Below are positions 20,376-33,183 of a DNA stretch of 64,000 bases, piece after piece. The first letter of the stretch is position 1; every line of letters starts with the position of its first letter. Location: contig JAWKRR010000018.1 in the NCBI GenBank assembly GCA_041389525.1, positions 1,721 to 65,720 of the forward strand, in the 5' to 3' direction. Source of the DNA: Myxococcota bacterium. Lineage in GTDB: Bacteria; Myxococcota_A; UBA9042; PHBI01; JACKFB01. Position numbers and translations under genes: made by a program. The notes beneath the pieces were generated by a model, which was not told the DNA's origin, did no database searches, and was given only the letters and a program-made list of their open reading frames with translations.

Positions 20376-21244
20376 TCAGCCGCCCCCGAAGTCGATGTCC
20401 GGGCCGACCGGGACGATGCCGTGCGGGTTGATGCTCTTGTGGCTGCCGAAGTAGTGGCGCTTGATGTACGGGATGTCGACGGTCTCCGCGATGCCCGGCA
20501 GCGCGTAGAGGCGCTTGGTGAAGGCCCACAGCCGCGGGTAGTCGCGCAGGCGCCGCAGGTTGCACTTGAAGTGGTAGTGGTAGACCGGGTCGAAGCGCAC
20601 CAGCGTCGTGAAGAGGCGCCAGTCCGCCTCGGTCTCCTGCCCGCCGACCAGCCACTGCTGCCCGTCCAAGCGCTCCTCGAGCCGGTCCAGCGTCGTGAAG
20701 AGCCCCGCGAACGCGTCCTCGTAGGCGGCCTGCGTGGTGCGAATCCGCAGCGATAGACGCTGCTGTTTACGTTGTCGTAGACCTCCGCGTTCAGCGCGTC
20801 GATCCGCCACGCAGCGCCTCGTGTAGAAGTCGTGGCGCACGTCGGCGAAGGCGTCGAAGGCGCCGTTCATGATGCGCAGGATCTCGACGATTCGTTGTTC
20901 ACGATGGTCTTCAGCTGACCGTGATCCCAGAGCACCGGGACCGTGACGCGCCCGGAATCCGGCCGCGCGGCGGTGTAGATCTCGTGCAGGAAGCGCGCGC
21001 TGCAGGGGATCCGTCCCCCAGCCGTTCTCCAGCATCAACGGCGCTACGCTCGAGAAGCTGATGACGCCCTCGGCGCCCTTGCGGACGCGCATCACCAGCG
21101 TGCGGTGCGCCCACGGGCAGGCCCACGACATACAGGTGGCGCCTGCGCGCCGCCGGAAACGCGCCGGAACCGTCGGCGGTCACCGCGTTTCCGAAACGAG
21201 GAATCCTCCTCGCTGAACGGCCACCTCGGTCGGATACCAGACAT
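20376..21244 (-). pseudogene. Omega-class glutathione S-transferase (glutathionyl-hydroquinone reductase, YqjG/ECM4 family), multiply frameshifted
   Basis: CPWAHRT active site; C-terminal TEADWRLFTTLVRFDPVYHYHFKCNLRRL...HYFGSHKSINPHGIVPVGP. N-terminal motifs (AVTADGSGAFPA...HLYV) sit in other frames. Could be a true pseudogene or sequencing error. Confidence 0.85.
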
Positions 21245-21399
21245 GCGCCATTTCGCCACCCACCAGCTTCCCCATCCTGCACCTTCCCCTGCGTCCGGTC
21301 GCCCCAGCCATCCTGGCCTCGCCGCCGCAGCCGTCAACCCCCGGCGCGCGCCCTCGGGAGGGGAACAGCCCCCAGGCCAAGCCTTCCGCGCTGCAGCGC

Positions 21400-21715
21400 T
21401 GCCATGGGCTTTAGCCGGCTTCCTGACTGCGGAGCGGAGCCGCTTCCAGAGAGCCCGGGATCTCTGGCGCTGTGCCAGACCGCGACGACAAACAGCATCT
21501 CTGCCTTCGCTCAAGATTGTTCAGCCCAGCGGAAAGCGCCGAAGCGTGCAGCGCCGATACCCTCCGCCGAGCTTCACCGCCGCACCCGGATGGTCGCTAA
21601 TCGAGGCTATGCACGGCGGAACTCGGCGACGAACTCTGAGCCGAGCCCGCTACCTGCTCGTCACCATCGCCGGCCTGCAGGCGGAGCCCAGCGCAGGGAG
21701 GATGACGGCCTTCAT
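21400..21715 (-). pseudogene. RelE/ParE family toxin, frameshifted
   Basis: Reading across frames gives MKAVILP...GLGSEFVAEFRRA..SDHPGAAVKLGGGYRRCTLRRFP...VVAVWHSARDP..WKR. Confidence 0.7.
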
Positions 21716-21911
21716 CGCGTCTTGAGGTAGTCAGCCGTGTCTTCCGCAGCGCGACGCCGGTCGTCGGGTCCTCCTCGTAGCCGGCGACGCGGCGATCCAG
21801 CTCGGCGAGCTCATCCACCGTGAGCGGCGCTGACAACTCGTCGTCGAGAGCGAGTTCCACAGTGTCTCGATCAGCTGCAGCTTTTCCCTGCGGCAACTTC
21901 ATTGATTTCAT
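21712..21911 (-). pseudogene. Putative addiction-module antitoxin (TIGR02574-like), frameshifted
   Basis: EKLQLIETLWNSL in one frame, LTVDELAELDRRVAGYEEDPTTG in another; directly upstream of the ParE-like toxin. Confidence 0.7.
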
Positions 21912-22116
21912 TGCCCACGCTGCAGCGCTCACGTTCTTCCTGTGGGTCGGGCCAACATCAACATAGTCCTGACGGGGCCGGTGTCCAAGCCTGGGACATG
22001 AGCGTTCTCAGCTCCCCTGGGGTCGGTGGGGCCTGCGAGGCAGCGGGATAATCATCATGTGGAACGACAGCGCGGAAGCAATGGGGTGCACCAGCACCTC
22101 GCCTCTGGAGCCAGTC

Positions 22117-22380
22117 ATGGCCACCCCACCCCGCATCACCTTCGATCCGTCGTTGGCGGGCGGGAAGCCGTGCATTCGCGGGCTCCGGGTCACCGTCGCA
22201 GGCCGGTCGTAGGTCTGCCGCTTCCGGGCGTTCCTGAAGAGATCCTCGCGCTCTATCCCTACCTCGAACCCGACGACATTCAGGCTGCCCCACGGCCAGC
22301 GTGGCGAGTCGAGGATAAGACCCGCCCCTCGGCCCTGATGCGCCTCCTGCTCGACATGAACCTCTCCCCCGCGTCGGTGA
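22117..22380 (+). pseudogene. DUF433 antitoxin plus start of a DUF5615 PIN-like toxin, degenerate copy 1
   Basis: MATPPRITFDPSLAGGKPCIRGLRVTV...EEILALYPYLEPDDIQAA, followed by TGATG-coupled MRLLLDMNLSP. Confidence 0.8.
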
Positions 22381-22487
22381 GCGAATTGACGCTCCGTATT
22401 AGTTTCCCTTGGGGTTAGTTCCGTTAGAGGTGGTTCAAAGTGCGAGTACGGGGTAAGAACCCTGCTTTCCCGCGAAGAATATCACCC

Positions 22488-22561
22488 CAAAATGAAGAAA
22501 TGAGTGGCGTTGCCTACTCGCTTCAAAATGAGAAATGGGTGGCGTTGCCCCTACTCGCTTC
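22488..22561 (+). repeat. Two-copy ~37-bp AT-richer tandem repeat
   Basis: aaaatga(a)gaaatg(a/g)gtggcgttgcc(cc)tactcgcttc occurs twice head-to-tail. Confidence 0.75.
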
Positions 22562-22719
22562 AGCACGTGCAGGCTCACCTACCAAGCAAGAGGAGAGGCG
22601 CCTGACAGGCGCGGTGTAGGCCGAGAAGAAGAGAACGCAGCGGATCGGACCGCGTAGTCATCGAAATCAGGAGGGCCTTTTATAAAACTCACCCATGTCG
22701 AGAATTGAGTGGTCTCGAC

Positions 22720-22850
22720 CCCTACATCCTCGACCTCGAACCCGACGACATTCAGGCTGCCCTGACCTACGCCGCGTGGCGAGTCGAGGAGCAAGACTCC
22801 GCCCTCGGCCCTTGATGCGCCTGCTGCCCGACATGGCTTCGCCTGCGGGC
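22720..22850 (+). pseudogene. Second partial DUF433/DUF5615 junction fragment
   Basis: cctcgaacccgacgacattcaggctgccc...gcgtggcgagtcgagga...tgatgcgcctgctgcccgacatg repeats the 22260-22360 segment. Confidence 0.7.
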
Positions 22851-23421
22851 CGAGCCGGGCGCTTGTGGGCTCACGATGACGTGCAGTCTATTATCTCTCC
22901 CCGGGTCGGATCCCCCGGTCCTCTGTTCGCTCCCCGGGGTTGGCTTTGCCAAGGTTTTGGGGGATCTCGTATGGGGGGAGCGCAATGGGTGAAGCAATCG
23001 GCTCGCGTCTTGAAGAGGCTATCAAGCTGCTGCGGACGTGGATGCTAGGGGCGAGCGGTAGTGGAAATGTAGGCCAAGATCCCAGGAGCCGATTCTGGCC
23101 TCAGGAACAGACACTTCAGGATTGGTTTGCCGCTGCGCTTGTGCGGGCAGGCTATTGTGCGGGCCCCACCCATGTACTCGCGGAAATTGCGCTTGGTGTC
23201 AGCAGGGGTCGAGAAGCGCGTAGGGCCGGCGAGCAGCGCGTGATGCCGACAATCTGGCTGGCGACCAGCAGGTCGCGTAGTCAGAGGTGTCTTGAAGTCG
23301 GGGAGCTGGCGCAGTAACGCCGGCTCCCCTGGGCGGGTCCGACAACAAACGTCTGAACCGTCCGAGCGGAGGATGCCGCGGACCGCTTAGGACGGCCAGG
23401 ACTTCGAGGCGGGAGACCCCG

Positions 23422-24060
23422 CTGGAGAGCGCTCGTCTGTACTCGTGCCGCGCGTGCGGTCACCTCGTGACGATCTGTCGGTCTTGCGACCGCGGCAACA
23501 TCTACTGCCAGGACTGCCGCCCTGAGCGCCGCTGTGCGAGTCGCCGCCGGGCTCGCCAGACCTACCGCCGCACCGCTCGCGGCGCCCGCAAGCACAAGAT
23601 GGGCGAGTCGCGCCGCTACCACCGGTTGCGCGCCGCCGCCCTCACAAACCTGGGGGATCACGGTTCCGCCACCCCATCGCCGGTCGCAGCATCTTCCGAG
23701 ACCTCGACCCCCAACCCTGTCGAGGCGGAGGTGACCCATGCATCATTGGAAGATGGCCATCGAGCCGACCACCTGGAACACAAAGCTCCTGGTGACGGAC
23801 CCGGACGGCCACGAGCTCTTGAAGGCGGCCCTGCCGCCGACCCCGCAGCACCCGCGTGCCCTGCTGACGCTGCTCGAGGGCCTGGCGCTTTGGGCCGGAC
23901 GCCCGCTCACGGCTGTGATTTCTGTCGGGCCGACGTTGCCCCGGCACTTCGACGAGGCTTTGTTCGGCACCCCGCTCGTCCCGAGCGACAGCGCGCTGGT
24001 GCGCTTCGAAGTGGTCGCGCCGGCCCGCCGCCGCCGCCGCACCCTCAGCGGTGTCGGTGA
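23422..24060 (+). CDS. IS21 accessory ORF with Cys-rich putative Zn-binding N-terminus and basic region
   Basis: LESARLYSCRACGHLVTICRSCDRGNIYCQDCR followed by an Arg-rich helix. Start uncertain (CTG at 23422 after GGAG, or GTG at 23467); the 3' part overlaps the next ORF. Confidence 0.6.
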   Translation: MESARLYSCRACGHLVTICRSCDRGNIYCQDCRPERRCASRRRARQTYRRTARGARKHKMGESRRYHRLRAAALTNLGDHGSATPSPVAASSETSTPNPVEAEVTHASLEDGHRADHLEHKAPGDGPGRPRALEGGPAADPAAPACPADAARGPGALGRTPAHGCDFCRADVAPALRRGFVRHPARPERQRAGALRSGRAGPPPPPHPQRCR

Positions 24061-24100
24061 CTTCCGGCAGCTCCGCCTCCTGCACCGGGGGCGGGCATGA
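23738..24100 (+). CDS. IS21 accessory ORF 2 (hypothetical, 120 aa)
   Basis: GGAGG ribosome-binding site upstream; TKLLVTDPDGHELLKAALPP..HPRALLTLLEGLALWAG; ATGA overlap with istA. Confidence 0.75.
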   Translation: MHHWKMAIEPTTWNTKLLVTDPDGHELLKAALPPTPQHPRALLTLLEGLALWAGRPLTAVISVGPTLPRHFDEALFGTPLVPSDSALVRFEVVAPARRRRRTLSGVGDFRQLRLLHRGRA

Positions 24101-25605
24101 TCTCCGCCGACCTGAAGGCCAGGATCCGTCGACTCTACCACGCCGAGGGGTGGCCCGTCGGGACCATCGGGCGCCACCTGAGCCTGCACCACAACACAGT
24201 CCGGCAGTCGCTGTTGCGCGACGGCGTGCCGCTGGACGCCATCGCGACGCGGCGCTCGAAGGCCGACCCGTACGTGCCGTTCTTGCTCGGGATGCTGGAG
24301 AAGTACCCGACGCTGACGGCGAGCCGCCTCTACGCGATGGTGCGGGAGCGCGGCTATGACGGCGGCCCCGACCACTTTCGCGTGTTCGTGGCGCGGCACC
24401 GCAAGCGCCCGGCGGCCGAGGCGTACCTGCGCCTGTCGACGCTCCGAGGCGAGCAGGCGCAGGTGGACTGGGGCCACTTCGGCCACATCGACGTCGACGG
24501 CGCACGGCGGCCGCTCGTGGCGTTCGTGATGGTGCTGTCGTGGTCGCGGTGGGCGTTTTTGCGCTTCGGCGTGGACATGCGCATGGGCAGCTTCCTCGAG
24601 CATCACGAGGCCGCGTTCCGCGCGTGGGGCGGCGTGCCGCGGGTGGCGCTCTACGACAACCTCAAGTCGGCCGTGACGCAGCGCATCGGCGACGCCATCG
24701 TGTTCAACACGAACCTGCTGGCGTTCGCGGGGCACTACGGCTACGAACCACGCCCGGTCGCGCCCTACCGCGGCAACGAGAAAGGCCGCGTCGAGCGGGC
24801 GATTCGCGACGTGCGCACGTCGTTCTTCGCGGCGCGGGAGTGGACGGACCTGGCCGACCTGAACGCGCAGGCCGAGCGCTGGTGCCGCGAGGTGCGCGGG
24901 TCGCGGCGGCACCCCGAGGACCGGACGCTCACGGTCGCGCAGGCGTTCGCCGAGGAGCAGGCGCTGCTGCGCGCGCTGCCGAGTGACGCGTTCCCAGTGG
25001 CCGACCGCGTCGAGGTGAAGGTCGGCAAGACGCCGTACGTGCGCTTCGACGGCAACGACTACAGCGTGCCGCACGACCATGTGCGGCGCATGCTGACGGT
25101 GCTGGCGACGAGCGATGCGGTGCGTGTGATAGATGGCGCCGAGGTTGTTGCGACGCACACGCGCTCGTGGGGCAAGGGGCGGCAGGTCGAGGACGCGGCG
25201 CACATGGCGGCGCTTGTCGAGCATAAGCGCGCGGCGCGGGAGGCGCGCGGGATGAACCGCGTGTTCGTGTCGGTGCCACCAGCGCAGGAGCTCGTGCGCG
25301 TCCTCGCCGAGCGCGGTGGCAACATCGGCGGGGCGGTGGCGCGGCTCGGTGAGCTACTCGATGCCTTCGGGGCCGAGGAGATGGTGGCGGCCGTCGACGA
25401 GGCGATGGCGATGGACGCTCCGCACGTCGCGGCGGTGCGACAGATCCTCGACCGACGTCGACGCGACCATGGCCAGCTGGCACCCATCGCCGTGGCGTTG
25501 CCAGACGATCCGCGCGTACGGGGCGTCGTCGTGCGCCGGCCGACGCTCGGCGTGTACGACGCGCTCAAGGGGCTCAAGGGGTTCAAGGGGGGCGGCGATG
25601 AGTGA
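24097..25605 (+). CDS. istA: IS21 family transposase
   Basis: N-terminal HTH; GEQAQVDWG, YDNLK, PYRGNEKGRVER (DDE); FDGNDYSVP. Confidence 0.95.
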   Translation: MISADLKARIRRLYHAEGWPVGTIGRHLSLHHNTVRQSLLRDGVPLDAIATRRSKADPYVPFLLGMLEKYPTLTASRLYAMVRERGYDGGPDHFRVFVARHRKRPAAEAYLRLSTLRGEQAQVDWGHFGHIDVDGARRPLVAFVMVLSWSRWAFLRFGVDMRMGSFLEHHEAAFRAWGGVPRVALYDNLKSAVTQRIGDAIVFNTNLLAFAGHYGYEPRPVAPYRGNEKGRVERAIRDVRTSFFAAREWTDLADLNAQAERWCREVRGSRRHPEDRTLTVAQAFAEEQALLRALPSDAFPVADRVEVKVGKTPYVRFDGNDYSVPHDHVRRMLTVLATSDAVRVIDGAEVVATHTRSWGKGRQVEDAAHMAALVEHKRAAREARGMNRVFVSVPPAQELVRVLAERGGNIGGAVARLGELLDAFGAEEMVAAVDEAMAMDAPHVAAVRQILDRRRRDHGQLAPIAVALPDDPRVRGVVVRRPTLGVYDALKGLKGFKGGGDE

Positions 25606-26326
25606 CGACCTCGACAAGCGTCTTCGCGCCATCGGTCTCGTCGGGCTCGCTGCGCGTCTCGACGAGATCCGCGGCGAACCGTGGGTCGAGCGGGTCATCG
25701 CCATCGAGGCGGAGGAGCGGCAGCGGCGGGGTTTCGATAGCCGCTTCAAGAGCAGCCGACTGGGCCGCTTCAAGCCGATGGCCGACTTCGACTGGAGTTG
25801 GCCGCGTGCCGCCCACCGCGAGGCCATCGACGCCCTGTTCCAGCTCCGGTTCATCGACGAGGGGGCCAACGTGATCCTCGCCGGGCCCAACGGAGTCGGA
25901 AAGACGATGATCGCGAAGAACCTCGCTCACGCGGTGATCCGGGCGGGCAAGACGGGGCGGTTCACGACGGCGAGCGCGATGCTCAACGAGCTGGCCGCGC
26001 AGGAGGGCCTGGTCGCCTTGTCGCGCGCATATCGGCGCTACACGAGCCCGGCGGTCCTGGTCGTCGACGAGCTCGGCTACGTCGCCTACGGCAATCGCCA
26101 CGCCGACGTACTCTTCGAGGTAGTGAACCGCCGCTACGAACTCGGCCGCAGCGTCATCGTCACCACCAACAGGGCGTTTCAGGAGTGGGGGGACCTGTTT
26201 CCCAACGCCACCTGCGTCGTCCCCCTCATCGACCGCCTCGTTCACAAAAGCGACATCTTCGAAATCGACGGTGACTCCTACCGTCTCAAGGAGGCCCAGG
26301 AGCGCGCCCAGCGCCGCAACGCCTGA
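25598..26326 (+). CDS. istB: IS21 family ATP-binding helper protein
   Basis: DFDWSWP, GPNGVGKT, LVVDELGY, SVIVTTNRAFQEWGDLF, IDRLVH. Confidence 0.95.
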   Translation: MSDDLDKRLRAIGLVGLAARLDEIRGEPWVERVIAIEAEERQRRGFDSRFKSSRLGRFKPMADFDWSWPRAAHREAIDALFQLRFIDEGANVILAGPNGVGKTMIAKNLAHAVIRAGKTGRFTTASAMLNELAAQEGLVALSRAYRRYTSPAVLVVDELGYVAYGNRHADVLFEVVNRRYELGRSVIVTTNRAFQEWGDLFPNATCVVPLIDRLVHKSDIFEIDGDSYRLKEAQERAQRRNA

Positions 26327-27057
26327 GTCCTGAGCGCGCGGCTGACCACCGACGACACCGGCGGTCAGCCGCGCTTCTCGCCGCCGTGGATGGCGAGCTG
26401 GCGTAACTCGCCGTCCACGGCGGTGACATCACGCACAACTCGCCGCGCACGATGGGGACATCACCCACAACTCGCCGTTCCTGTGCGCTTATTGGGCGCC
26501 GTCAACACTTGGCGAAAACGAAGTCGTATCGGCCACGGTCCGCGCCGGAATCGGGGGCGAGTCCTCAACTTGCTTCCTGTACGACCTCGTAGTGCTTCAC
26601 GGCCCAGCCATCGGGATGTCTCGCAGTTTCGAGACCGTTCAAGATCCTGGGCCTGGGGCGAAGCTGTTCGTACAGATCAAGTCGCTCAACAGCGCAGGGA
26701 CCATGGGTAGAAACCAGTTGGTCTCCGACCTTCGAAGTCTGTGGGTCGCCAGGAGACACAGCGAGGAGCGAGGTTGCACTGCTGACACGTTGTTCCTCGT
26801 CCTCGCAACCAGCTCCAAGGACGCGAAGGACATCGAGCAGGTCAGGCGCAGGGTCCGGTGGTTAGCGGATCGTTTCGTGGAGTTCACTGGAGACGGTGCT
26901 GCGGCCGACGTGCCTTCCGGCGTGCCGTTCGCATTGGTTCTTGCGGACGGAGTACCGGCCCTGGGCATAAACTCGGTCGACATCAGGCGAACCACGGGAA
27001 CTTGGACACCTCAACCCAAGTGAGACGAGGGGGCGGGTCCGGACTTAGGATGAGCGC

Positions 27058-27197
27058 TGTCTGACCCTGATGTATCCCCACGAATTTTTTACGCTGGAGG
27101 GGGGCGCGCTGGAGGGGGGCGGAGGGCGGTGTCTGACCCTGATGTATCCCCACGAATTTTTTACGCTGGAGGGGCGCGCTGGAGGGGCGGAGGGCGG
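27058..27197 (+). repeat. Two-copy ~70-bp tandem repeat, each unit starting at the TGTCTGACC REP core
   Basis: tgtctgaccctgatgtatccccacgaattttttacgctggagggg...ggagggcgg at 27058-27129 and 27130-27197. Confidence 0.85.
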
Positions 27198-27218
27198 TGT
27201 CGACCCCCGCACTACGCA
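27197..27218 (+). repeat. Left REP-like motif of RAYT copy 1
   Basis: GTGTC-GACCCCCGCACTACGCA, one base shorter than the 30605-30627 copy. Confidence 0.8.
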
Positions 27219-27254
27219 CTTGACCCTTCGGGGCGCTCGACGGAGACTGGTCGC

Positions 27255-28206
27255 ATGGCACGGAAGCAGCGGATCGATGAGGCTGGGGCTTGGCACCACG
27301 TGATGAACCGCGGGGCTCGGCGGGGGATGTGTTTACGCGGGACGACACTGCGTGGCGTTCCTCGACCTGCTCGGCGAGGTGACGTTCGAGTTGGGGTGGG
27401 AGGTGCATGCGTGGGCGCTGATGCCGAACCACTTCCATCTGCTGGTGCGAAGTGTGGAAGGCAACCTGTCGCGGTGCATGCAGACGCTTTGCGGGCGGTA
27501 CACGCGGCGGCTTAACGTGCAGGAGGGTGGGATGGGCCGACGTTTCGCGGGCGCTTTCGGAACCAGCGCATTGTGGACGCTCGCTATCTGCGCCACTTGG
27601 TCGCATACGTTCATCTGAACCCGGTGCGCGCGCGACTGGTGCGGCGGGCTGACGAGGACTGCTGGACCAGCCATCGGTCGCACCTCGGGCTCGACAGTCC
27701 GCCGGCTGGCTGGCGCGCTGGATGGTCGAGCAGGTTCGGCTCGCCGGAGCAGCTTCAGGCGTATGTGCGCGATGTGCACACGGGTCGCGAGCCGTGGCCT
27801 GCGGATTTGGACCTGTCCACGGGTTGGCTGAGCCAGCCAGCCACGGCCAAGGCGCAGTTTTCGCGGGCGCCGGTGGACGCCGACGCATCGCCCGCCGTGC
27901 TCACGCCCGACGACGTGCTCAGCCGGGTCATCGCGGTCACCGGCGCAAGCAAGCCCGAGATCGCGCAGGCGACCCGGAGGCGGCGCAAACCCGCCACGCA
28001 GGTTCGCGGCGTGGATGCTCGCTCGGCACACCACCCTTACCCACGCCGAGATCGGGGCGACCCTGGGGATGGGCCGACGGCAGGAGTCGCTGCTGTACCG
28101 GCTGCGGATGCGGGGAGCGAGTGCGCCGCTGACGGACTGGCGCGACGTGGGACCGGTCGCTGCGCCGCCGTCGCGCTTGGCCCGGACTCGCGGGAGTAAT
28201 GCGTAG
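27255..28206 (+). pseudogene. REP-associated tyrosine transposase (RAYT, Y1_Tnp) copy 1, frameshifted
   Basis: Near-identical to 30664..31629 but with multiple 1-5 nt indels; HAWALMPNHFHLL is retained. Confidence 0.9.
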
Positions 28207-28781
28207 TGCGGGGGTCAGACACTGATGTCCGCGGGGGTAATGCGTAGTGCGGGGGTCAGACACTGATGTCATGGGGGCAGACACACCGCACCGTCCGCAC
28301 CGTCTGACGGACTGGCGCGACGCGTGGGACCTGGTCGCTGCGCCGCCGTCGCGCTTGGCCCGGACTCGCGGGGGGTAATGCGTAGTGCGGGGGTCAGACA
28401 CTGATGTACCCCTTACCCACGCCGAGATCGGGGCGACCTGGGGATGAGCCGACGGGCAGGTGGAGTCGCTGCTGTACCGGCTGCGGATGCGGGGAGCGAG
28501 TGCGCCGCTGACGGACTGGCGCGACGCGTGGGACCTGGTCGCTGCGCCGCCGTCGCGCTTGGCCCGGACTCGCGGGGGTAATGCGTAGTGCGGGGGTCAG
28601 ACACTGATGTCCTGGCCCGGACTCGCGGGGGTAATGCGGTAGTGCGGGGTCAGACACTGATGTCCTGCGCCGTCGCGGCCCGACTCGCGGGGGTAATGCG
28701 TAGTGCGGGGGTCAGACACTGATGTCCACTTGGCCCGGACTCGCGGGGGTAATGCGTAGTGCGGGGGTCAGACACTGATGT
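28178..28781 (+). repeat. Nested array of RAYT 3'-end copies, each ending at GGGGGTCAGACACTGATGT
   Basis: Seven endings at 28228, 28269, 28407, 28610, 28663, 28725 and 28781; intervening units of 41, 138, 203, 53, 62 and 56 bp, all derived from the RAYT 3' end. Confidence 0.85.
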
Positions 28782-28964
28782 ACTGCGACCGGCCCTCCCG
28801 TCGAGCTGCTTCCAAAGCGGTGCCCGACGGCGCTCGCAGCAATCTCACGCAGTCCCTACCGGGCTGAGGAAGATGCGTGGGGATCCCTTAAGGGTCAGAC
28901 ACCGCAACTTGAATAGGTGATACTTATTGCTTAACGCGAGGCCGTGCGGTACGCGTTTTGTATC

Positions 28965-29573
28965 ATGCGTTCTGAGAGCACGACCAAGACTGAGGCGCTG
29001 CTGCGATTGGCCCGGATGGGGCCGGTTCGGGCTCGGGACCTTGATGAGGTTGGGATCCCTCGGGCTTATCTGAGGCGACTTTGCGAGCGCGGGCTGCTGG
29101 CGCGGGTCGACCGCGGGCTCTACCGGCTGGCTGACGCGCCGGTGACGGAGCTGAGTTCCCTCGCCGACGTCTGCAAGCGCGTGCCCAGCGCGGTGATTTG
29201 CCTGCTCAGCGCGCTGCAGGTTCACGGGCTGACGACCGAGGCGCCGCACGCGGTCTGGGTGCTCATCCCGCGTCACGGGCGGTCGCCGAAGCTGGAATCA
29301 CCGAAGCTCGAGGTGGTGCGGGCCAGCGGCGCTGCGCTCGAGCATGGCGTGGAGACACGGACCGTTGACGGGGTGGAAGTCAGGTTCACCACACCTGCGA
29401 AGACCGTCGCCGACTGCTTCCGGTTCCGCCGACACGTGGGCCTCGACGTCGCGCTCGCAGCGCTTAGCGACTACCTGCGCAAACGCGCCGGCAGCGTGGA
29501 CGAGCTTGTCGCAGCCGCCCGCGCAGATCGCATCTATTCGTTCATGCGGCCCTACCTGGAGGCCCTCGCATGA
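28965..29573 (+). CDS. abiEi: Type IV TA antitoxin, AbiEi family transcriptional regulator
   Basis: wHTH (RARDL...YLRRLCERGLLARVDRGLYRL), VICLLSALQVHGLTTE, TTPAKTVADCFRFR. Confidence 0.9.
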   Translation: MRSESTTKTEALLRLARMGPVRARDLDEVGIPRAYLRRLCERGLLARVDRGLYRLADAPVTELSSLADVCKRVPSAVICLLSALQVHGLTTEAPHAVWVLIPRHGRSPKLESPKLEVVRASGAALEHGVETRTVDGVEVRFTTPAKTVADCFRFRRHVGLDVALAALSDYLRKRAGSVDELVAAARADRIYSFMRPYLEALA

Positions 29574-30487
29574 CAAAGCGGCCGCCTACAGATATCGGTG
29601 ACTCGGTCCGCGCTCGACTCGCTCGCGTCGCTCGCCAGCAGGGTGAGGACTTCCAGTTCGTGCTGACGCGATACGCGAACGAGCGGTGGCTCTACCGCCT
29701 GGGCTCATCTCGGCACGCATCTCGATTCGTGCTGAAGGGCGCGGCGCTCTTTTCGATCTGGATGGGCAGACCCCACCGGGCGACTCGCGACATTGACCTG
29801 CTCGGGTTTGGCGACCCGGACGTGGCCCACATTCGCGAACTCTTCGCCGAGCTGCTTGCGCTGGATGTGCCTGAGGACGGCGTCGATTTTGAGCGAGAGT
29901 CGCTGACCGTCGCCCCTATCCGCGGAGGGCAGGAGTACGGCGGCGTGCGAGCCGAGTTCCTAGCCCGCATCACGTCTGCGCGTATTCGGATGCAGGTCGA
30001 CGTCGGGTTTGGGGACGCCGTCACACCCGCGGCGCGCGACACCGAGTTCCCGTGCCTGCTCGACTTTCCAGCCCCGCGCCTGCGGGTGTACCCGCGCGAG
30101 ACCGTCGTCGCCGAGAAGCTTGAGGCGATGGTCCGACTCGGCGCGGCGAATAGTCGGATGAAGGACTTCTTCGATATCGCCGCCCTGGCGCATGGCTTCG
30201 CTTTCGAGGAGGACAGCCTCGCGAGTGCCGTCTCCGCGACCTTCGAGCGCCGCAAGACATCGTTGCCGACGGGCACTCCCGTGGCGCTGACGCCGGAGTT
30301 CACCGACGACACGGCCAAGAAGCTCCAGTGGGCCGGATTCATCCGCAAGGCGAACGTGGGCGACGCGATGAGCCTTCGGGAGACCGGGTCGGCTATTGAC
30401 CGATTCTTGGAAGTCCCTCTCGCCGCGGCCAGACGTGGCGGGCTGAGTTCGGGCGCGGTCTGGAAGCCTGGAGGGCCCTGGGAGTAG
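29570..30487 (+). CDS. abiEii: Type IV TA toxin, AbiEii family nucleotidyltransferase
   Basis: YANERWLYRL, FVLKGAAL, RATRDIDLL, QVDVGFGD, YPRETVVAEKLEAM, SRMKDFFD; ATGA overlap with abiEi. Confidence 0.92.
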   Translation: MTKRPPTDIGDSVRARLARVARQQGEDFQFVLTRYANERWLYRLGSSRHASRFVLKGAALFSIWMGRPHRATRDIDLLGFGDPDVAHIRELFAELLALDVPEDGVDFERESLTVAPIRGGQEYGGVRAEFLARITSARIRMQVDVGFGDAVTPAARDTEFPCLLDFPAPRLRVYPRETVVAEKLEAMVRLGAANSRMKDFFDIAALAHGFAFEEDSLASAVSATFERRKTSLPTGTPVALTPEFTDDTAKKLQWAGFIRKANVGDAMSLRETGSAIDRFLEVPLAAARRGGLSSGAVWKPGGPWE

Positions 30488-30604
30488 GGTCTCGGCGTCC
30501 AGGCGGGGCTCGCGCCGGTGGCAAGGGGAGAGGCGGTCTCGGTTCCTGGTACCCATGCTACACATCAGCAGCCCGACAGCCACGGACTGAAAGACGGGAG
30601 GGCG

Positions 30605-30627
30605 GTGTCTGACCCCCGCACTACGCA
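30605..30627 (+). repeat. Left REP-like motif of RAYT copy 2
   Basis: GTGTCTGACCCCCGCACTACGCA is the exact reverse complement of TGCGTAGTGCGGGGGTCAGACAC found in the arrays at the RAYT 3' ends. Confidence 0.85.
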
Positions 30628-30663
30628 CTTGACCCTTCGGGGCGCTCGACGGAGACTGGTCGC

Positions 30664-31629
30664 ATGGCACGGAAGCAGCGGATCGATGAGGCGGGGGCTT
30701 GGCACCACGTGATGAACCGCGGGGCTCGGCGGGGGGATGTGTTTACGCGGGACGAGCACTGCGTGGCGTTCCTCGACCTGCTCGGCGAGGTGACGTTCGA
30801 GTTGGGGTGGGAGGTGCATGCGTGGGCGCTGATGCCGAACCACTTCCATCTGCTGGTGCGAAGTGTGGAAGGCAACCTGTCGCGGTGCATGCAGACGCTT
30901 TGCGGGCGGTACACGCGGCGGCTTAACGTGCAGGAGGGGTGGGATGGGCCGACGTTTCGCGGGCGCTTTCGGAACCAGCGCATTGTGGACGCTCGCTATC
31001 TGCGCCACTTGGTCGCATACGTTCATCTGAACCCGGTGCGCGCGCGACTGGTGCGGCGGGCTGACGAGGACTGCTGGACCAGCCATCGGTCGCACCTCGG
31101 GCTCGACAGTCCGCCGGCCTGGCTGGCGCGCTGGATGGTCGAGCAGGAGTTCGGCTCGCCGGAGCAGCTTCAGGCGTATGTGCGCGATGTGCACACGGGT
31201 CGCGAGCCGTGGCCTGCGGATTTGGACCTGTCCACGGGTTGGCTGAGCCAGCCAGCCACGGCCAAGGCGCAGTTTTCGCGGGCGCCGGTGGACGCCGACG
31301 CATCGCCCGCCGTGCTCACGCCCGACGACGTGCTCAGCCGGGTCATCGCGGTCACCGGCGCAAGCAAGCCCGAGATCGCGCAGGCGACCCGAGGCCCGGC
31401 CGCAAACCCGCCACGCAGGTTCGCGGCGTGGATGCTCGCTCGGCACACCACCCTTACCCACGCCGAGATCGGGGCGACCCTGGGGATGAGCCGACGGCAG
31501 GTGGAGTCGCTGCTGTACCGGCTGCGGATGCGGGGAGCGAGTGCGCCGCTGACGGACTGGCGCGACGCGTGGGACCTGGTCGCTGCGCCGCCGTCGCGCT
31601 TGGCCCGGACTCGCGGGGGTAATGCGTAG
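30664..31629 (+). CDS. REP-associated tyrosine transposase (RAYT, HUH Y1_Tnp) with C-terminal HTH
   Basis: WHHVMNRGARR, HAWALMPNHFHLL (HuH), YTRRLN...GPTFRGRF, LVAYVHLNPVRA, CWTSHRSH; C-terminal LTHAEIGATLGMSRRQV HTH. Confidence 0.9.
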   Translation: MARKQRIDEAGAWHHVMNRGARRGDVFTRDEHCVAFLDLLGEVTFELGWEVHAWALMPNHFHLLVRSVEGNLSRCMQTLCGRYTRRLNVQEGWDGPTFRGRFRNQRIVDARYLRHLVAYVHLNPVRARLVRRADEDCWTSHRSHLGLDSPPAWLARWMVEQEFGSPEQLQAYVRDVHTGREPWPADLDLSTGWLSQPATAKAQFSRAPVDADASPAVLTPDDVLSRVIAVTGASKPEIAQATRGPAANPPRRFAAWMLARHTTLTHAEIGATLGMSRRQVESLLYRLRMRGASAPLTDWRDAWDLVAAPPSRLARTRGGNA

Positions 31630-32207
31630 TGCGGGGTAGTGTGGGGGTCAGACACCGCACCGTCTGACGGACTGGCGCGACGCGTGGGACCTGGTCGCTG
31701 CGCCGCCGTCGCGCTTGGCCCGGACTCGCGGGGGTAATGCGTAGTGGGGGGATACATCAGGGTCAGACACTGATGTGGTCCTGATGTTCTGATGTGGTCG
31801 TGGCCCGGACTCGCGGGGGCAATGCGATAGTGCGGGGGTCGACACTGATGTCCGACACGATGTCCGGGTCGCTCGAGGCCGGTCCACGCGGCACTGGGCT
31901 TACGAGGCGAGGCGGTCCTGGCACTGGCGACTGTCGCACCTGGGAGGTACTGCGTAGTGCGGGCGTCAGACAGTCGCCCGGACTCGACACCCCCGTGACG
32001 CCGTAGTGGGGTGTCGATCTACGGCTCGCGCCAGACATCCTCACGCCCGCAGTGTCCAGCCGCGACGGCTGCGGATGCGGCTGGAGCGGGAAGTGCGCTC
32101 GCTGAGCGGTACTACGCGCGGACGTCGCGGGGGTCAGACGCTGATGTCCCGCTCTGATGTCCGGACTCGCGGGGGTAATGCGTAGTGCGGGGGTCAGACA
32201 CTGATGT
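31623..32207 (+). repeat. Second, more degenerate array of RAYT 3'-end/REP copies
   Basis: Repeated ggcccggactcgcggggg..tgcgtagtgcgggggtcagacactgatgt variants; hairpins GTCAGAC-accgcacc-GTCTGAC and ACATCAG-ggtcagaca-CTGATGT. Confidence 0.75.
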
Positions 32208-33183
32208 GGACGAGGGTGACGAGAACGACGCGCTCAAGGACGTGTTCTCGAACATCCCGGCGGGCGAGGCCGCGGTCTCGACCATCGACGGCGTCACGCT
32301 GGACATCACGAACCTCGTCCCGGCCATCACGGACGCGTGGACCTACGACGGCTCGCTGACCACGCCGCCCTGCTCGGAAGGCGTGAACTGGATCGTCATG
32401 GCCGAGTCCATGGAGGTCTCCGCGGCGCAGCTCAAGGCGTTCACCGACGTCATTGAGGACAACAACCGCCCCACGCAGTCCCTCGAGGCCCGCACGATTC
32501 ACGGCGCCCACTGGTCCTACGAGGGCGAGGCCGGTCCGGAGAATTGGGGCGAGCTGGCGCACGCGTGGGGGACCTGCGAAGAGGGCACCGAGCAGTCGCC
32601 CATCGACATCGACACCGCGACCGCGCCTGCCGATTTCAGCTCGCTGTCGACGACCTACGGGACCTCGGCGCTGAACATCCTCAACAACGGCCACACGGTT
32701 CAGGTCAACGTGGACGCGGGCAGCACCATCGACGTGGCCGGCAAGGCCTACTCGCTGCTGCAGTTCCACTTCCACGCGGGCAGCGAGCACACCCGTGACG
32801 GGGCGCAGGCCCCCATCGAGATGCACATGGTCCACCAGGCGGCCGACAAGTCGCTGGCGGTCCTCGGTGTGTTCATCACGGAGGGCTCCGAGAACGACAC
32901 GTTGAAGGGCGTGTTCTCGAACCTGCCCGTCACCAGCACGCCCGTCAGCACCGTGGACGGCGAGACCGTCGACGTCGCTGGGCTGCTGCCGGCCAGCCTG
33001 ATGGGCTGGTCGTACGCGGGCTCGCTGACCACGCCGCCCTGCTCGGAGGGCGTGAGTTGGATGGTGATGTCGGAGGATATCGAGGCGTCGAAGGCGCAGA
33101 TCGACAGCTTCACGTCCATCTTCAGCGACAATTTCCGCCCCGTGCAGTCGCTCGGCGCGCGCACGTTGACCGCGGGTAACTAA
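32185..33183 (+). CDS. Tandem-domain alpha-carbonic anhydrase, 5' part replaced by the repeat array
   Basis: Complete second domain (HWSYEG..GPENWG, QSPIDI, NNGHTVQ, QFHFHAGSEH, EMHMVH, YAGSLTTPPCSEGV). The first domain is only its C-terminal half (YDGSLTTPPCSEGVNW..NNRPTQ) and begins at the REP junction near 32207. Confidence 0.85.
   Translation: MRGSDTDVDEGDENDALKDVFSNIPAGEAAVSTIDGVTLDITNLVPAITDAWTYDGSLTTPPCSEGVNWIVMAESMEVSAAQLKAFTDVIEDNNRPTQSLEARTIHGAHWSYEGEAGPENWGELAHAWGTCEEGTEQSPIDIDTATAPADFSSLSTTYGTSALNILNNGHTVQVNVDAGSTIDVAGKAYSLLQFHFHAGSEHTRDGAQAPIEMHMVHQAADKSLAVLGVFITEGSENDTLKGVFSNLPVTSTPVSTVDGETVDVAGLLPASLMGWSYAGSLTTPPCSEGVSWMVMSEDIEASKAQIDSFTSIFSDNFRPVQSLGARTLTAGN

Follow-up and report, generated by a model that had tools for sequence, protein, structure and literature searches.

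The window analysed here is a 64-kb stretch of contig JAWKRR010000018.1 (assembly GCA_041389525.1, Myxococcota bacterium), within which a 321-codon gene for a Y1 HUH transposase is present twice, in copies 3.4 kb apart. Each copy is followed by an array of fragments of the gene's own 3' end, and it is the origin of these arrays that concerns us. Copy 2 is intact, and copy 1 is a pseudogene that differs from the reference element by 11 small deletions, one insertion and three substitutions. The reference is a separate short-read contig (L006), whose gene is 100% identical to copy 2 over 1034 nucleotides (nt); this independent contig has a single 3' end, followed by the same flank as that after the first array in the window. 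Element positions are numbered on L006 (1049 is the T of CTGATGT), and unit counts are given as assembled.

An earlier note on this sequence described seven successive segments with a common end after copy 1, and exact searching bears this out: GGGTCAGACACTGATGT occurs there seven times without mismatch on the + strand (ends at 28228, 28269, 28407, 28610, 28663, 28725 and 28781), whereas 100 shuffles give an expectation of 0.04. The unequal spacings that it listed (41, 138, 203, 53, 62 and 56 nt start to start) were recovered in the same register by a repeat search. Aligned to the reference, the successive units start at element positions ~1010, 941/947, 849, 999, 981/987 and 997, and each extends to 1049. 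Unit 4 has the reference state at each of the five changes specific to copy 1 (5/5), which argues that the array units were copied from an intact template. A junction reported to recur does so: the units at 28270–28407 and 31659–31776 begin with the same variant, GCACCGTCTGACGG. A 7-bp stem (GTCAGAC/GTCTGAC) is present in the minimum-energy fold at 31647–31668, and the junction at 28270–28303 is degenerate, with one T missing and a 9-nt stretch duplicated. This junction had been ascribed to CTGAC microhomology; its presence at both loci holds, but it represents one old event that was inherited or copied to two places.

A second array, overlooked in the earlier note, occupies 31637–32207 after copy 2 and consists of at least seven further 3'-end fragments. 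GGGTCAGACACTGATGT is matched in it at 31776, 32147 (one mismatch) and 32207. Unit identities range from 100% down to roughly 60–80%, so the process recurred over a long time, during which the fixed end was joined to at least 8–10 different partners. One of these partners is an alpha-carbonic anhydrase gene. About its first domain, the initial two thirds are gone and the cut falls exactly at the last repeat end (CTGATGT|GGACGAGG), and the missing 5' part does not occur elsewhere in the 64-kb window. The carbonic anhydrase open reading frame (ORF) now begins inside the repeat, with GTG at 32185.

Features of the repeat region and its surroundings (window positions)
Feature	Position	Strand	Basis
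Second repeat type, two tandem copies (72 + 69 nt), directly upstream of the copy-1 left end	27054–27194	+	repeat search
Left terminal inverted repeat, copy 1, degenerate (central T of GTCTGAC lost)	27195–27218	+	repeat search
Copy 1 of the Y1 transposase gene, pseudogene	27255–28206	+	comparison with reference
Right inverted repeat, copy 1 (TGCGTAGTGCGGGGGTCAGACAC) + TGATGT; first of seven fixed ends	28200–28228	+	exact search
Unit 2, 41 nt, start ~1010	28229–28269	+	alignment to L006
Unit 3, 138 nt: 27-nt repeat-derived filler, then 941/947–1049	28270–28407	+	alignment to L006
Unit 4, 203 nt, element 849–1049	28408–28610	+	alignment to L006
Unit 5, 53 nt, start 999, junction ...GTCC|TGG	28611–28663	+	alignment to L006
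Unit 6, 62 nt, start 981 or 987, junction ...GTCC|TGCGCC, small internal deletions	28664–28725	+	alignment to L006
Unit 7, 56 nt, start 997, junction ...CCAC|TTGG	28726–28781	+	alignment to L006
Original 3' flank (ACTGCG...), ending in inverted second-type head (28860–28905)	28782–28905	+	same flank after single end in L006
AbiEi antitoxin (28944–29573) and AbiEii toxin (29570–30487)	28944–30487	+	Pfam; context, not array
Left terminal inverted repeat, copy 2 (GGAGGGCGGTGTCTGACCCCCGCACTACGCA)	30597–30627	+	repeat search
Copy 2, intact Y1 HUH transposase gene, putative TIRYT type, 321 aa, putative C-terminal DnaA_C-like helix-turn-helix	30664–31629	+	ORF, Pfam, alignments
Canonical right inverted repeat, copy 2 (GTAGTGTGGGGGTCAGACACCGC), after 10-nt stutter (GTAGTGCGGG/GTAGTGTGGG)	31626–31658	+	repeat search
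3'-end fragment array of copy 2	31659–32207	+	alignment to element
118-nt fragment, element 941–1049 + 10-nt insertion, unit-3 junction	31659–31776	+	alignment
Three mini-units, 8–13 nt, little beyond CTGATGT	31777–31795, 31852–31864, 32148–32160	+	alignment
56-nt unit, start ~991–999	31796–31851	+	alignment
Old diverged units, ~60–80% identity to gene tail	31865–31972, 31973–32020, 32021–32147	+	alignment
Perfect 47-nt unit, start 1003	32161–32207	+	alignment
Alpha-carbonic anhydrase gene, two tandem domains, first truncated	32208–33183	+	ORF, Pfam

The copy-2 protein has the HUH motif NHFHLLV and a catalytic tyrosine within AYVHLNPV, and its stop codon is the TAG of the downstream repeat's GTAG. 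It contains the Y1 HUH core (Pfam Y1_Tnp, 31.8 bits; cutoff 23), which aligns to the E. coli TnpAREP structure PDB 4ER8 (E = 4e-6; NHFHLLV vs EHMHCIW and AYVHLNPV vs DYIYINPV). Matches of the C-terminal part to Bac_DnaA_C (E = 0.004; 17.4 bits, below the cutoff of 31.5) and Sigma70_r4_2 (17.8 bits) are weak; several homologues have precomputed PF08299 or PF08281 matches, and the C-terminal block is conserved in the homologue alignment; this block and the length of 321 aa are compatible with such an extension. The score against the NCBIfam RAYT equivalog NF047646 is 69 bits, short of the curated cutoff of 80. TIRYT (or 'TIRtron', TnpAY1 subclass 2.1(.2)) transposases are described as having a Y1 core, a DnaA_C-like helix-turn-helix (HTH) and terminal inverted repeats (TIRs) with a GGGGWSAS motif, without repetitive extragenic palindromic (REP) hairpins (PMC3733652, PMC6006769). 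Since it combines a Y1 core and a putative DnaA_C-like HTH with TIRs instead of REP hairpins, the gene appears to be of the TIRYT / TnpAY1 subclass 2.1 type, i.e. a relative of RAYT but not a classical REP-associated RAYT.

Homologues number more than 3,000, most of them in Myxococcota-type metagenome bins. A scan of viral contigs found no relatives, and a plasmid scan only distant, core-only ones (≤38% identity). Two copies in one window, together with the identity of copy 2 to the copy in another sample, indicate present or past mobility of the element. Small indels make up most of the differences between locus 1, with its unique flank, and the reference; copy 2 is identical to the reference. 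Reading frames elsewhere in the window are stable (third-codon-position GC phase scan and ORF structure), so the copy-1 indels are local, and global assembly noise is rejected. These indels may be repair scars or a local consensus error.

The gene is bracketed by inverted repeats of ~25 nt with GTAG and a GTC(A/T)GAC core. A perfect inverted repeat extends over 23 nt between 30605–30627 (left arm, GTGTCTGACCCCCGCACTACGCA) and the right ends (right arm, TGCGTAGTGCGGGGGTCAGACAC). The GGGGWSAS-type motif reads GGGGTCAG on the GTAG strand and GGTGTCTG on the upstream strand, so the match depends on the strand read. As described for TIRs, these are inverted repeats rather than stem-loops, and one relative (L017) has a perfect repeat of 29 nt. 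No hairpin folds better than shuffled sequence in either strand of the unit, the left end or the 72-nt repeats (fold z +0.4 to +1.0); hairpin stalling as the anchor of the arrays was therefore rejected. GTAG itself is present, but the repeats are not palindromic GTAG-tagged REP hairpins. Matches to the repeat core are confined to 26980–32210, and the repeats are thus not dispersed in high copy number in the window. Among 185,579 species genomes, one exact match was found, a solo repeat by MazE/PIN in a Myxococcales metagenome-assembled genome (L007). A metagenome scan with the array end gave 0 matches, and one with the 18-nt core gave six matches, in contigs that are without a RAYT gene by tblastn and were judged unrelated from their context; these scans brought up no additional array.

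The second repeat type has an outer head (GGTGTCTGACC) in common with the terminal repeat, followed by CTGATGTATCCCCACGAAT. It also occurs inverted at 28860–28905, in the L006 flank and in L002, a contig of a 91% relative. There (L002 1345–1870), a 265-nt unit is present twice in tandem and interrupts a transposase gene of the IS110 family; it combines the left end of the Y1 transposase, stopping just short of the ATG, with a segment headed by the second repeat type. Repeat-headed pieces of this sort thus appear to move or amplify in the absence of the Y1 transposase gene. The central base of GTC(A/T)GAC was lost independently at 27202 and 31841, giving GTCGAC, and solo-repeat units in L021 and L022 read GGGGTCGA. 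The heptamer CTGATGT occurs 21 times in the window (3.2 expected), 19 of them within this 5-kb region. It faces outward ~40–70 nt outside both left ends (26980–26986 and 30562–30568, − strand) and is also found within the 72-nt repeats (27067 and 27139, + strand), where relatives have CTGAGGG; the loci of the 91% relative do not contain it.

Our survey of homologue loci covered L001–4, L014, L017, L019, L020–22, L027 and L031–38. In three samples of the Joint Genome Institute (JGI; L001–3), the 91% relative has an extra 76-nt left-end copy that reaches 11 nt into the coding sequence; in a contig of a different strain derived from the Sequence Read Archive (SRA; L004), it has two shorter left-end copies (~52 and ~25 nt). 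A 64% relative (L019) has GGGGTCAGA-tcc-GGGGTCAGACGCC at its left end and a 48% relative (L020–22) has GGGGGTCGCAC-GGGGGTCAAGAC; the latter also has 20-nt units by a solo repeat, whose number and length differ between L021 and L022. Nested or mini end-copies, a pattern for which the earlier note had proposed searching at other loci, are present in L001–4, L019 and L020–22 only, and L017, L014, L027 and L031–38 have clean single ends. Because of the inverted-repeat symmetry, the left-end arrays share the polarity of those in the window: on the GTAG...GGGGGTCAGACAC strand, units begin at varying points on the 5' side and share one 3' end.

Many junctions fall between C and T (written C|T): those of units 3, 5, 6 and 7, of the three mini-units and of the original flank. 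The T side begins at CT dinucleotides of the gene in units 5, 6, 7 and 3 (999, 981, 997 and 947, respectively) and at the T of C|TGATGT in the three mini-units, and the ancestral flank reads CTGATGTAC|TGCG. Three of the eight young starts lie exactly on one of the 11 CTs in the 191-nt start region (p = 0.009, post hoc, with placement free by 1–3 nt), and three further young starts lie ≤2 nt from a CT. Apart from this dinucleotide, no common motif precedes the ragged starts (such as an IS608 TTAC-like pseudo-target). In relatives, C|T is found 0–9 nt outside the repeat at 15 of the 17 tabulated repeat ends. The left-end nested duplication of the 91% relative has, on the GTAG strand, C|T on both partners (GCATC|TTCCGTGCC and GCATC|TTCGCAC); its nested junction and original flank both read GCATC|TTC, and the partner runs from a C|T in the gene. 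Most relatives keep the last two bases (AG) of the repeat tetranucleotide, and Corneloup et al. tie these two positions to C|T selection (PMC8266576). Microhomology at the junctions in the window is only 0–2 nt, a poor fit to plain slippage, and simple slipped-strand duplication was rejected there for this reason. The 76-nt duplication in L001–3 has a 4-nt GAAG overlap.

A published model for a related enzyme predicts arrays of this kind. TnpAREP binds the GTAG-bearing strand of a REP and cleaves single-stranded DNA at C|T on either side of it, 5' or 3', and in vitro it also cleaves many C|T sites spread over >400 nt. Cleavage produces a 3'-OH and a 5'-phosphotyrosyl link, and the T becomes joined to whichever 3'-OH attacks that link (PMC3333891, PMC8266576). 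In the model of Ton-Hoang et al. for the growth of bacterial interspersed mosaic elements (BIMEs), the 3'-OH of the first cut is extended by a host polymerase, and each unit runs from a first cut of variable position to a second one at a fixed place 3' of the repeat (Fig. 7B of PMC3333891). A first cut that can fall on any of several C|T sites would give units that start raggedly, end at one point and meet at C|T junctions.

In our analysis there is about an even chance that the arrays record repeated rounds of nicking, copying and rejoining by the encoded Y1 HUH enzyme at its own end. Two loci with a fixed end and ragged starts, and 8–10 independent junctions on the same anchor, support this reading. 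Starting from the observed anatomy and polarity of the arrays, the intact catalytic motifs of copy 2, the GTAG of the repeats and the C|T at many junctions and outside the repeats of relatives, we infer every enzymatic step as follows. The enzyme would bind the single-stranded repeat on the 5'-GTAG...GGGGGTCAGACAC-3' strand and cut at C|T (i) at one fixed site a few nt 3' of the repeat (ancestrally CTGATGTAC|TGCG) and (ii) at variable sites within the gene, up to ~200 nt 5' of the fixed one. The 3'-OH left by the 5' cut would prime a host polymerase, which would copy the sequence as far as the repeat once more; cleavage of the new strand at the fixed 3' site would then free a 3'-OH to attack the first tyrosyl-5'-phosphate link, leaving one extra copy from the variable start to the fixed end. 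Equivalently, excised single-strand circles of such segments could re-insert at C|T by the resident repeat. Repeated rounds would stack units of unequal length with one common end. The earlier note had proposed nick-and-copy events by an HUH enzyme; that proposal stands in so far as the fixed end and ragged starts match the TnpAREP model (PMC3333891), but its IS91 analogy is unsupported, and its RAYT label does not hold in the classical sense. Tentatively, and with somewhat less than an even chance, the arrays would be an in vivo record at base resolution, possibly the first, of a TIRYT enzyme that cuts C|T on the GTAG strand (at a fixed site outside the repeat and variable sites in the gene), combined with rolling-circle-like amplification. 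On that reading, the same end activity would also truncate neighbours such as the carbonic anhydrase gene, and the indel-rich state of the adjacent copy may be a scar of repair.

Several points weigh against enzymatic nick and copy. About half of the junctions are not C|T (units 2 and 4, 31796, 32161, 31972|31973 and the carbonic anhydrase junction, which is T|G), the placement of junctions is free by 1–3 nt and the CT test was post hoc. The fixed end reads CAC+TGATGT where the canonical repeat ends in CACCGC, and this reading does not account for the excess of CTGATGT. Mini-units of 8–13 nt are very short for an enzyme that needs a bound repeat and look more like polymerase stutter. Most of the examined relatives have clean ends; the behaviour is therefore lineage-specific, not general. 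We also know of no biochemical study of the TIRYT subclass. A hybrid is quite possible, in which a nick by the enzyme fixes the end and the extended strand then switches template.

Template switching without catalysis by the enzyme is an unlikely alternative that nevertheless explains some of these details. A polymerase would repeatedly stall or run off at one point just outside the repeat, on account of bound protein, a nick or an unusual structure, and its nascent 3' end would re-anneal, upstream to give a duplication or downstream to give a deletion. Besides the mini-units, the 10-nt stutter at 31626–31646 resembles polymerase stutter; short junction fillers (c, ac, cc and cca), the small indels in which locus 1 is rich (as after error-prone repair synthesis), the equal-length 20-nt units that differ in number between L021 and L022, and the non-C|T carbonic anhydrase junction also fit. 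However, the junctions have only 0–2 nt of microhomology and the end forms no stable hairpin; a protein roadblock would stall the polymerase at the inner edge of the repeat, not 6–9 nt past its outer edge, and the excess of CT at the starts and the conserved C|T outside the repeats of relatives would be left unaccounted for. Distinctly unlikely is that whole elements inserted repeatedly in or by the resident tail and that homologous recombination between the long direct repeats, or end-anchored adjacent deletion, left only tail fragments. In its favour, two full copies lie 3.4 kb apart, one of them identical to a copy in another sample, and the surviving fragments are all ≤203 nt, as expected if recombination removes long repeats; the fusion at 32207 of a repeat end with a foreign gene that is truncated resembles transposon-adjacent deletions, and relatives have the mirror image at the left end. 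This scenario requires at least eight full insertions within 200 nt of an end, each collapsing precisely, whereas the window has no left-end fragments 5' of either copy, and mini-units cannot arise in this way.

It is very unlikely that the arrays are an assembly artefact or the consensus of a heterogeneous population, the real genome having one 3' end or another number of units. L006 joins the identical gene to one 3' end and then to the same flank, and the difference spectrum at locus 1 is oddly dominated by indels. Yet an assembler cannot make old units of ~60–80% identity, each junction is unique, and reading frames are stable across the rest of the window. Moreover, nested end-copies occur in independent assemblies of relatives (the three JGI samples, L004, L019 and L020–22), and indels of 7 and 14 nt separate the L006 flank from that in the window, which indicates that L006 comes from another strain. 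The caution that hairpin-stalled reads could mimic the arrays names an unlikely source, as the end does not fold (z +0.4 to +1.0); the exact number of units is provisional. One-ended rolling-circle transposition of the IS91/ISCR/Helitron type, the analogy first drawn for this locus, or a reverse-transcription process with 5' truncation is extremely improbable: the formal pattern of one fixed and one variable end agrees with it, but the protein belongs to the Y1_Tnp family, neither a Rep/helicase nor a reverse transcriptase is encoded nearby, and the element has no ori/ter-type ends. One-ended IS91 events yield products longer than the element, and those in the window are shorter.

Toxin–antitoxin genes and insertion sequence (IS) remnants accompany this element in several places. 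The AbiE pair lies between the outer ends of the inverted second-type head (28860–28905) and the copy-2 left repeat (30597); in L006, other DNA comes after that head. The MazE/PIN pair of L007 is flanked by two direct-orientation solo repeats (195–228 and 1210–1245), and in L015 and L016, RHH/PIN is just upstream of the transposase. An IS21-family element (IstA of 502 aa, and IstB) occupies 24097–26326, 0.7 kb upstream of the repeat region, and in L014 an IstB remnant abuts the homologous transposase. The ORF-poor stretch that precedes the IS21 element contains a direct repeat of 110 nt (86% identity, 22255–22358 and 22726–22835). The glutathione S-transferase (GST) gene at 20376–21300 (− strand) has only a C-terminal GST domain detected by Pfam, and its N-terminal CPWAHR region is apparently frame-split; it is probably a pseudogene at the edge of the low-GC, ORF-poor stretch (21300–24000), likely of the Xi/YqjG-type subfamily. 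No known RNAs or tRNAs were found in 20–34 kb of the window.

Four known systems invite comparison. With IS200/IS605 elements (IS608, ISDra2; 'peel and paste'), this element shares a Y1 HUH transposase and, on the reading favoured here, strand-specific chemistry on single-stranded DNA and cuts distant from the recognized end, chosen by a short guide. In IS200/IS605, the ends are differing subterminal hairpins without inverted repeats and insertion takes place 3' of a fixed tetra- or pentanucleotide. The ends here are hairpin-less inverted repeats and do not conform to those of IS200/IS605, and the flanks of different copies have no common target sequence from which a target rule could be derived. 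Transposon-adjacent deletions and one-ended IS91 events share a fixed breakpoint at the element end with a variable other one, and the carbonic anhydrase gene is cut exactly at such an end. The enzyme family here is another, however, and most events duplicated short pieces of the element's tail rather than deleting or capturing flanks; a Rep-type transposase, ori/ter ends and products extending beyond the element, as in IS91/ISCR/Helitron elements, are absent.

The third comparison is with the TnpAREP/REPtron system and its BIMEs (PMC3333891, PMC3479197, PMC8266576). Shared with them are the homologous core (4ER8), GTAG at the inner side of the repeat, C|T near many junctions, the predicted fixed 3' and variable 5' cuts and a number of tandem units that varies among strains. 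Unlike them, the arrays have no stem-loop REP and no alternation of REP and inverted REP, all units being direct, unequal and with gene sequence; within the 64-kb window the repeats are confined to one region, and the protein falls below the NCBIfam RAYT cutoff. The TnpAREP papers call the mechanism of dissemination poorly understood, and the rolling-circle-like recombination proposed for the growth of REP/BIME clusters is not known to have been observed in vivo. Since ordinary REP/BIME units are all alike, cut points cannot be read from their sequence. The units described here contain unique coding sequence and differ in length, so each junction reports both breakpoints and the strand polarity. 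They therefore yield testable predictions (the strand cut, the C|T sites used and the dependence on GTAG) and a signature that can be searched for at other Y1 transposase loci.

The fourth comparison is with the TIRYTs, which share the Y1 HUH core and putatively its C-terminal DnaA_C-like/HTH extension, TIRs rather than palindromic REPs with a GGGGWSAS-type motif (GGGGTCAG), single, dimeric or clustered repeats and a stop codon overlapping the downstream repeat. The present locus differs in carrying the gene twice within 3.4 kb, once in decayed form, and in its stacked partial copies with ragged starts and up to 200 nt of coding sequence. Repeat clusters are known, but stacked unequal end-anchored copies with coding sequence are undescribed in the TIRYT literature that we searched. 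The truncated carbonic anhydrase gene, the decayed sister copy and the toxin–antitoxin cassette between repeats also suggest that a 'domesticated-looking' gene can still destabilize its surroundings. In brief, the element belongs to a class known from descriptions but not from experiments, and its arrays match the prediction of a published, unproven amplification model. It represents a natural experiment on an open mechanistic question rather than a new system.

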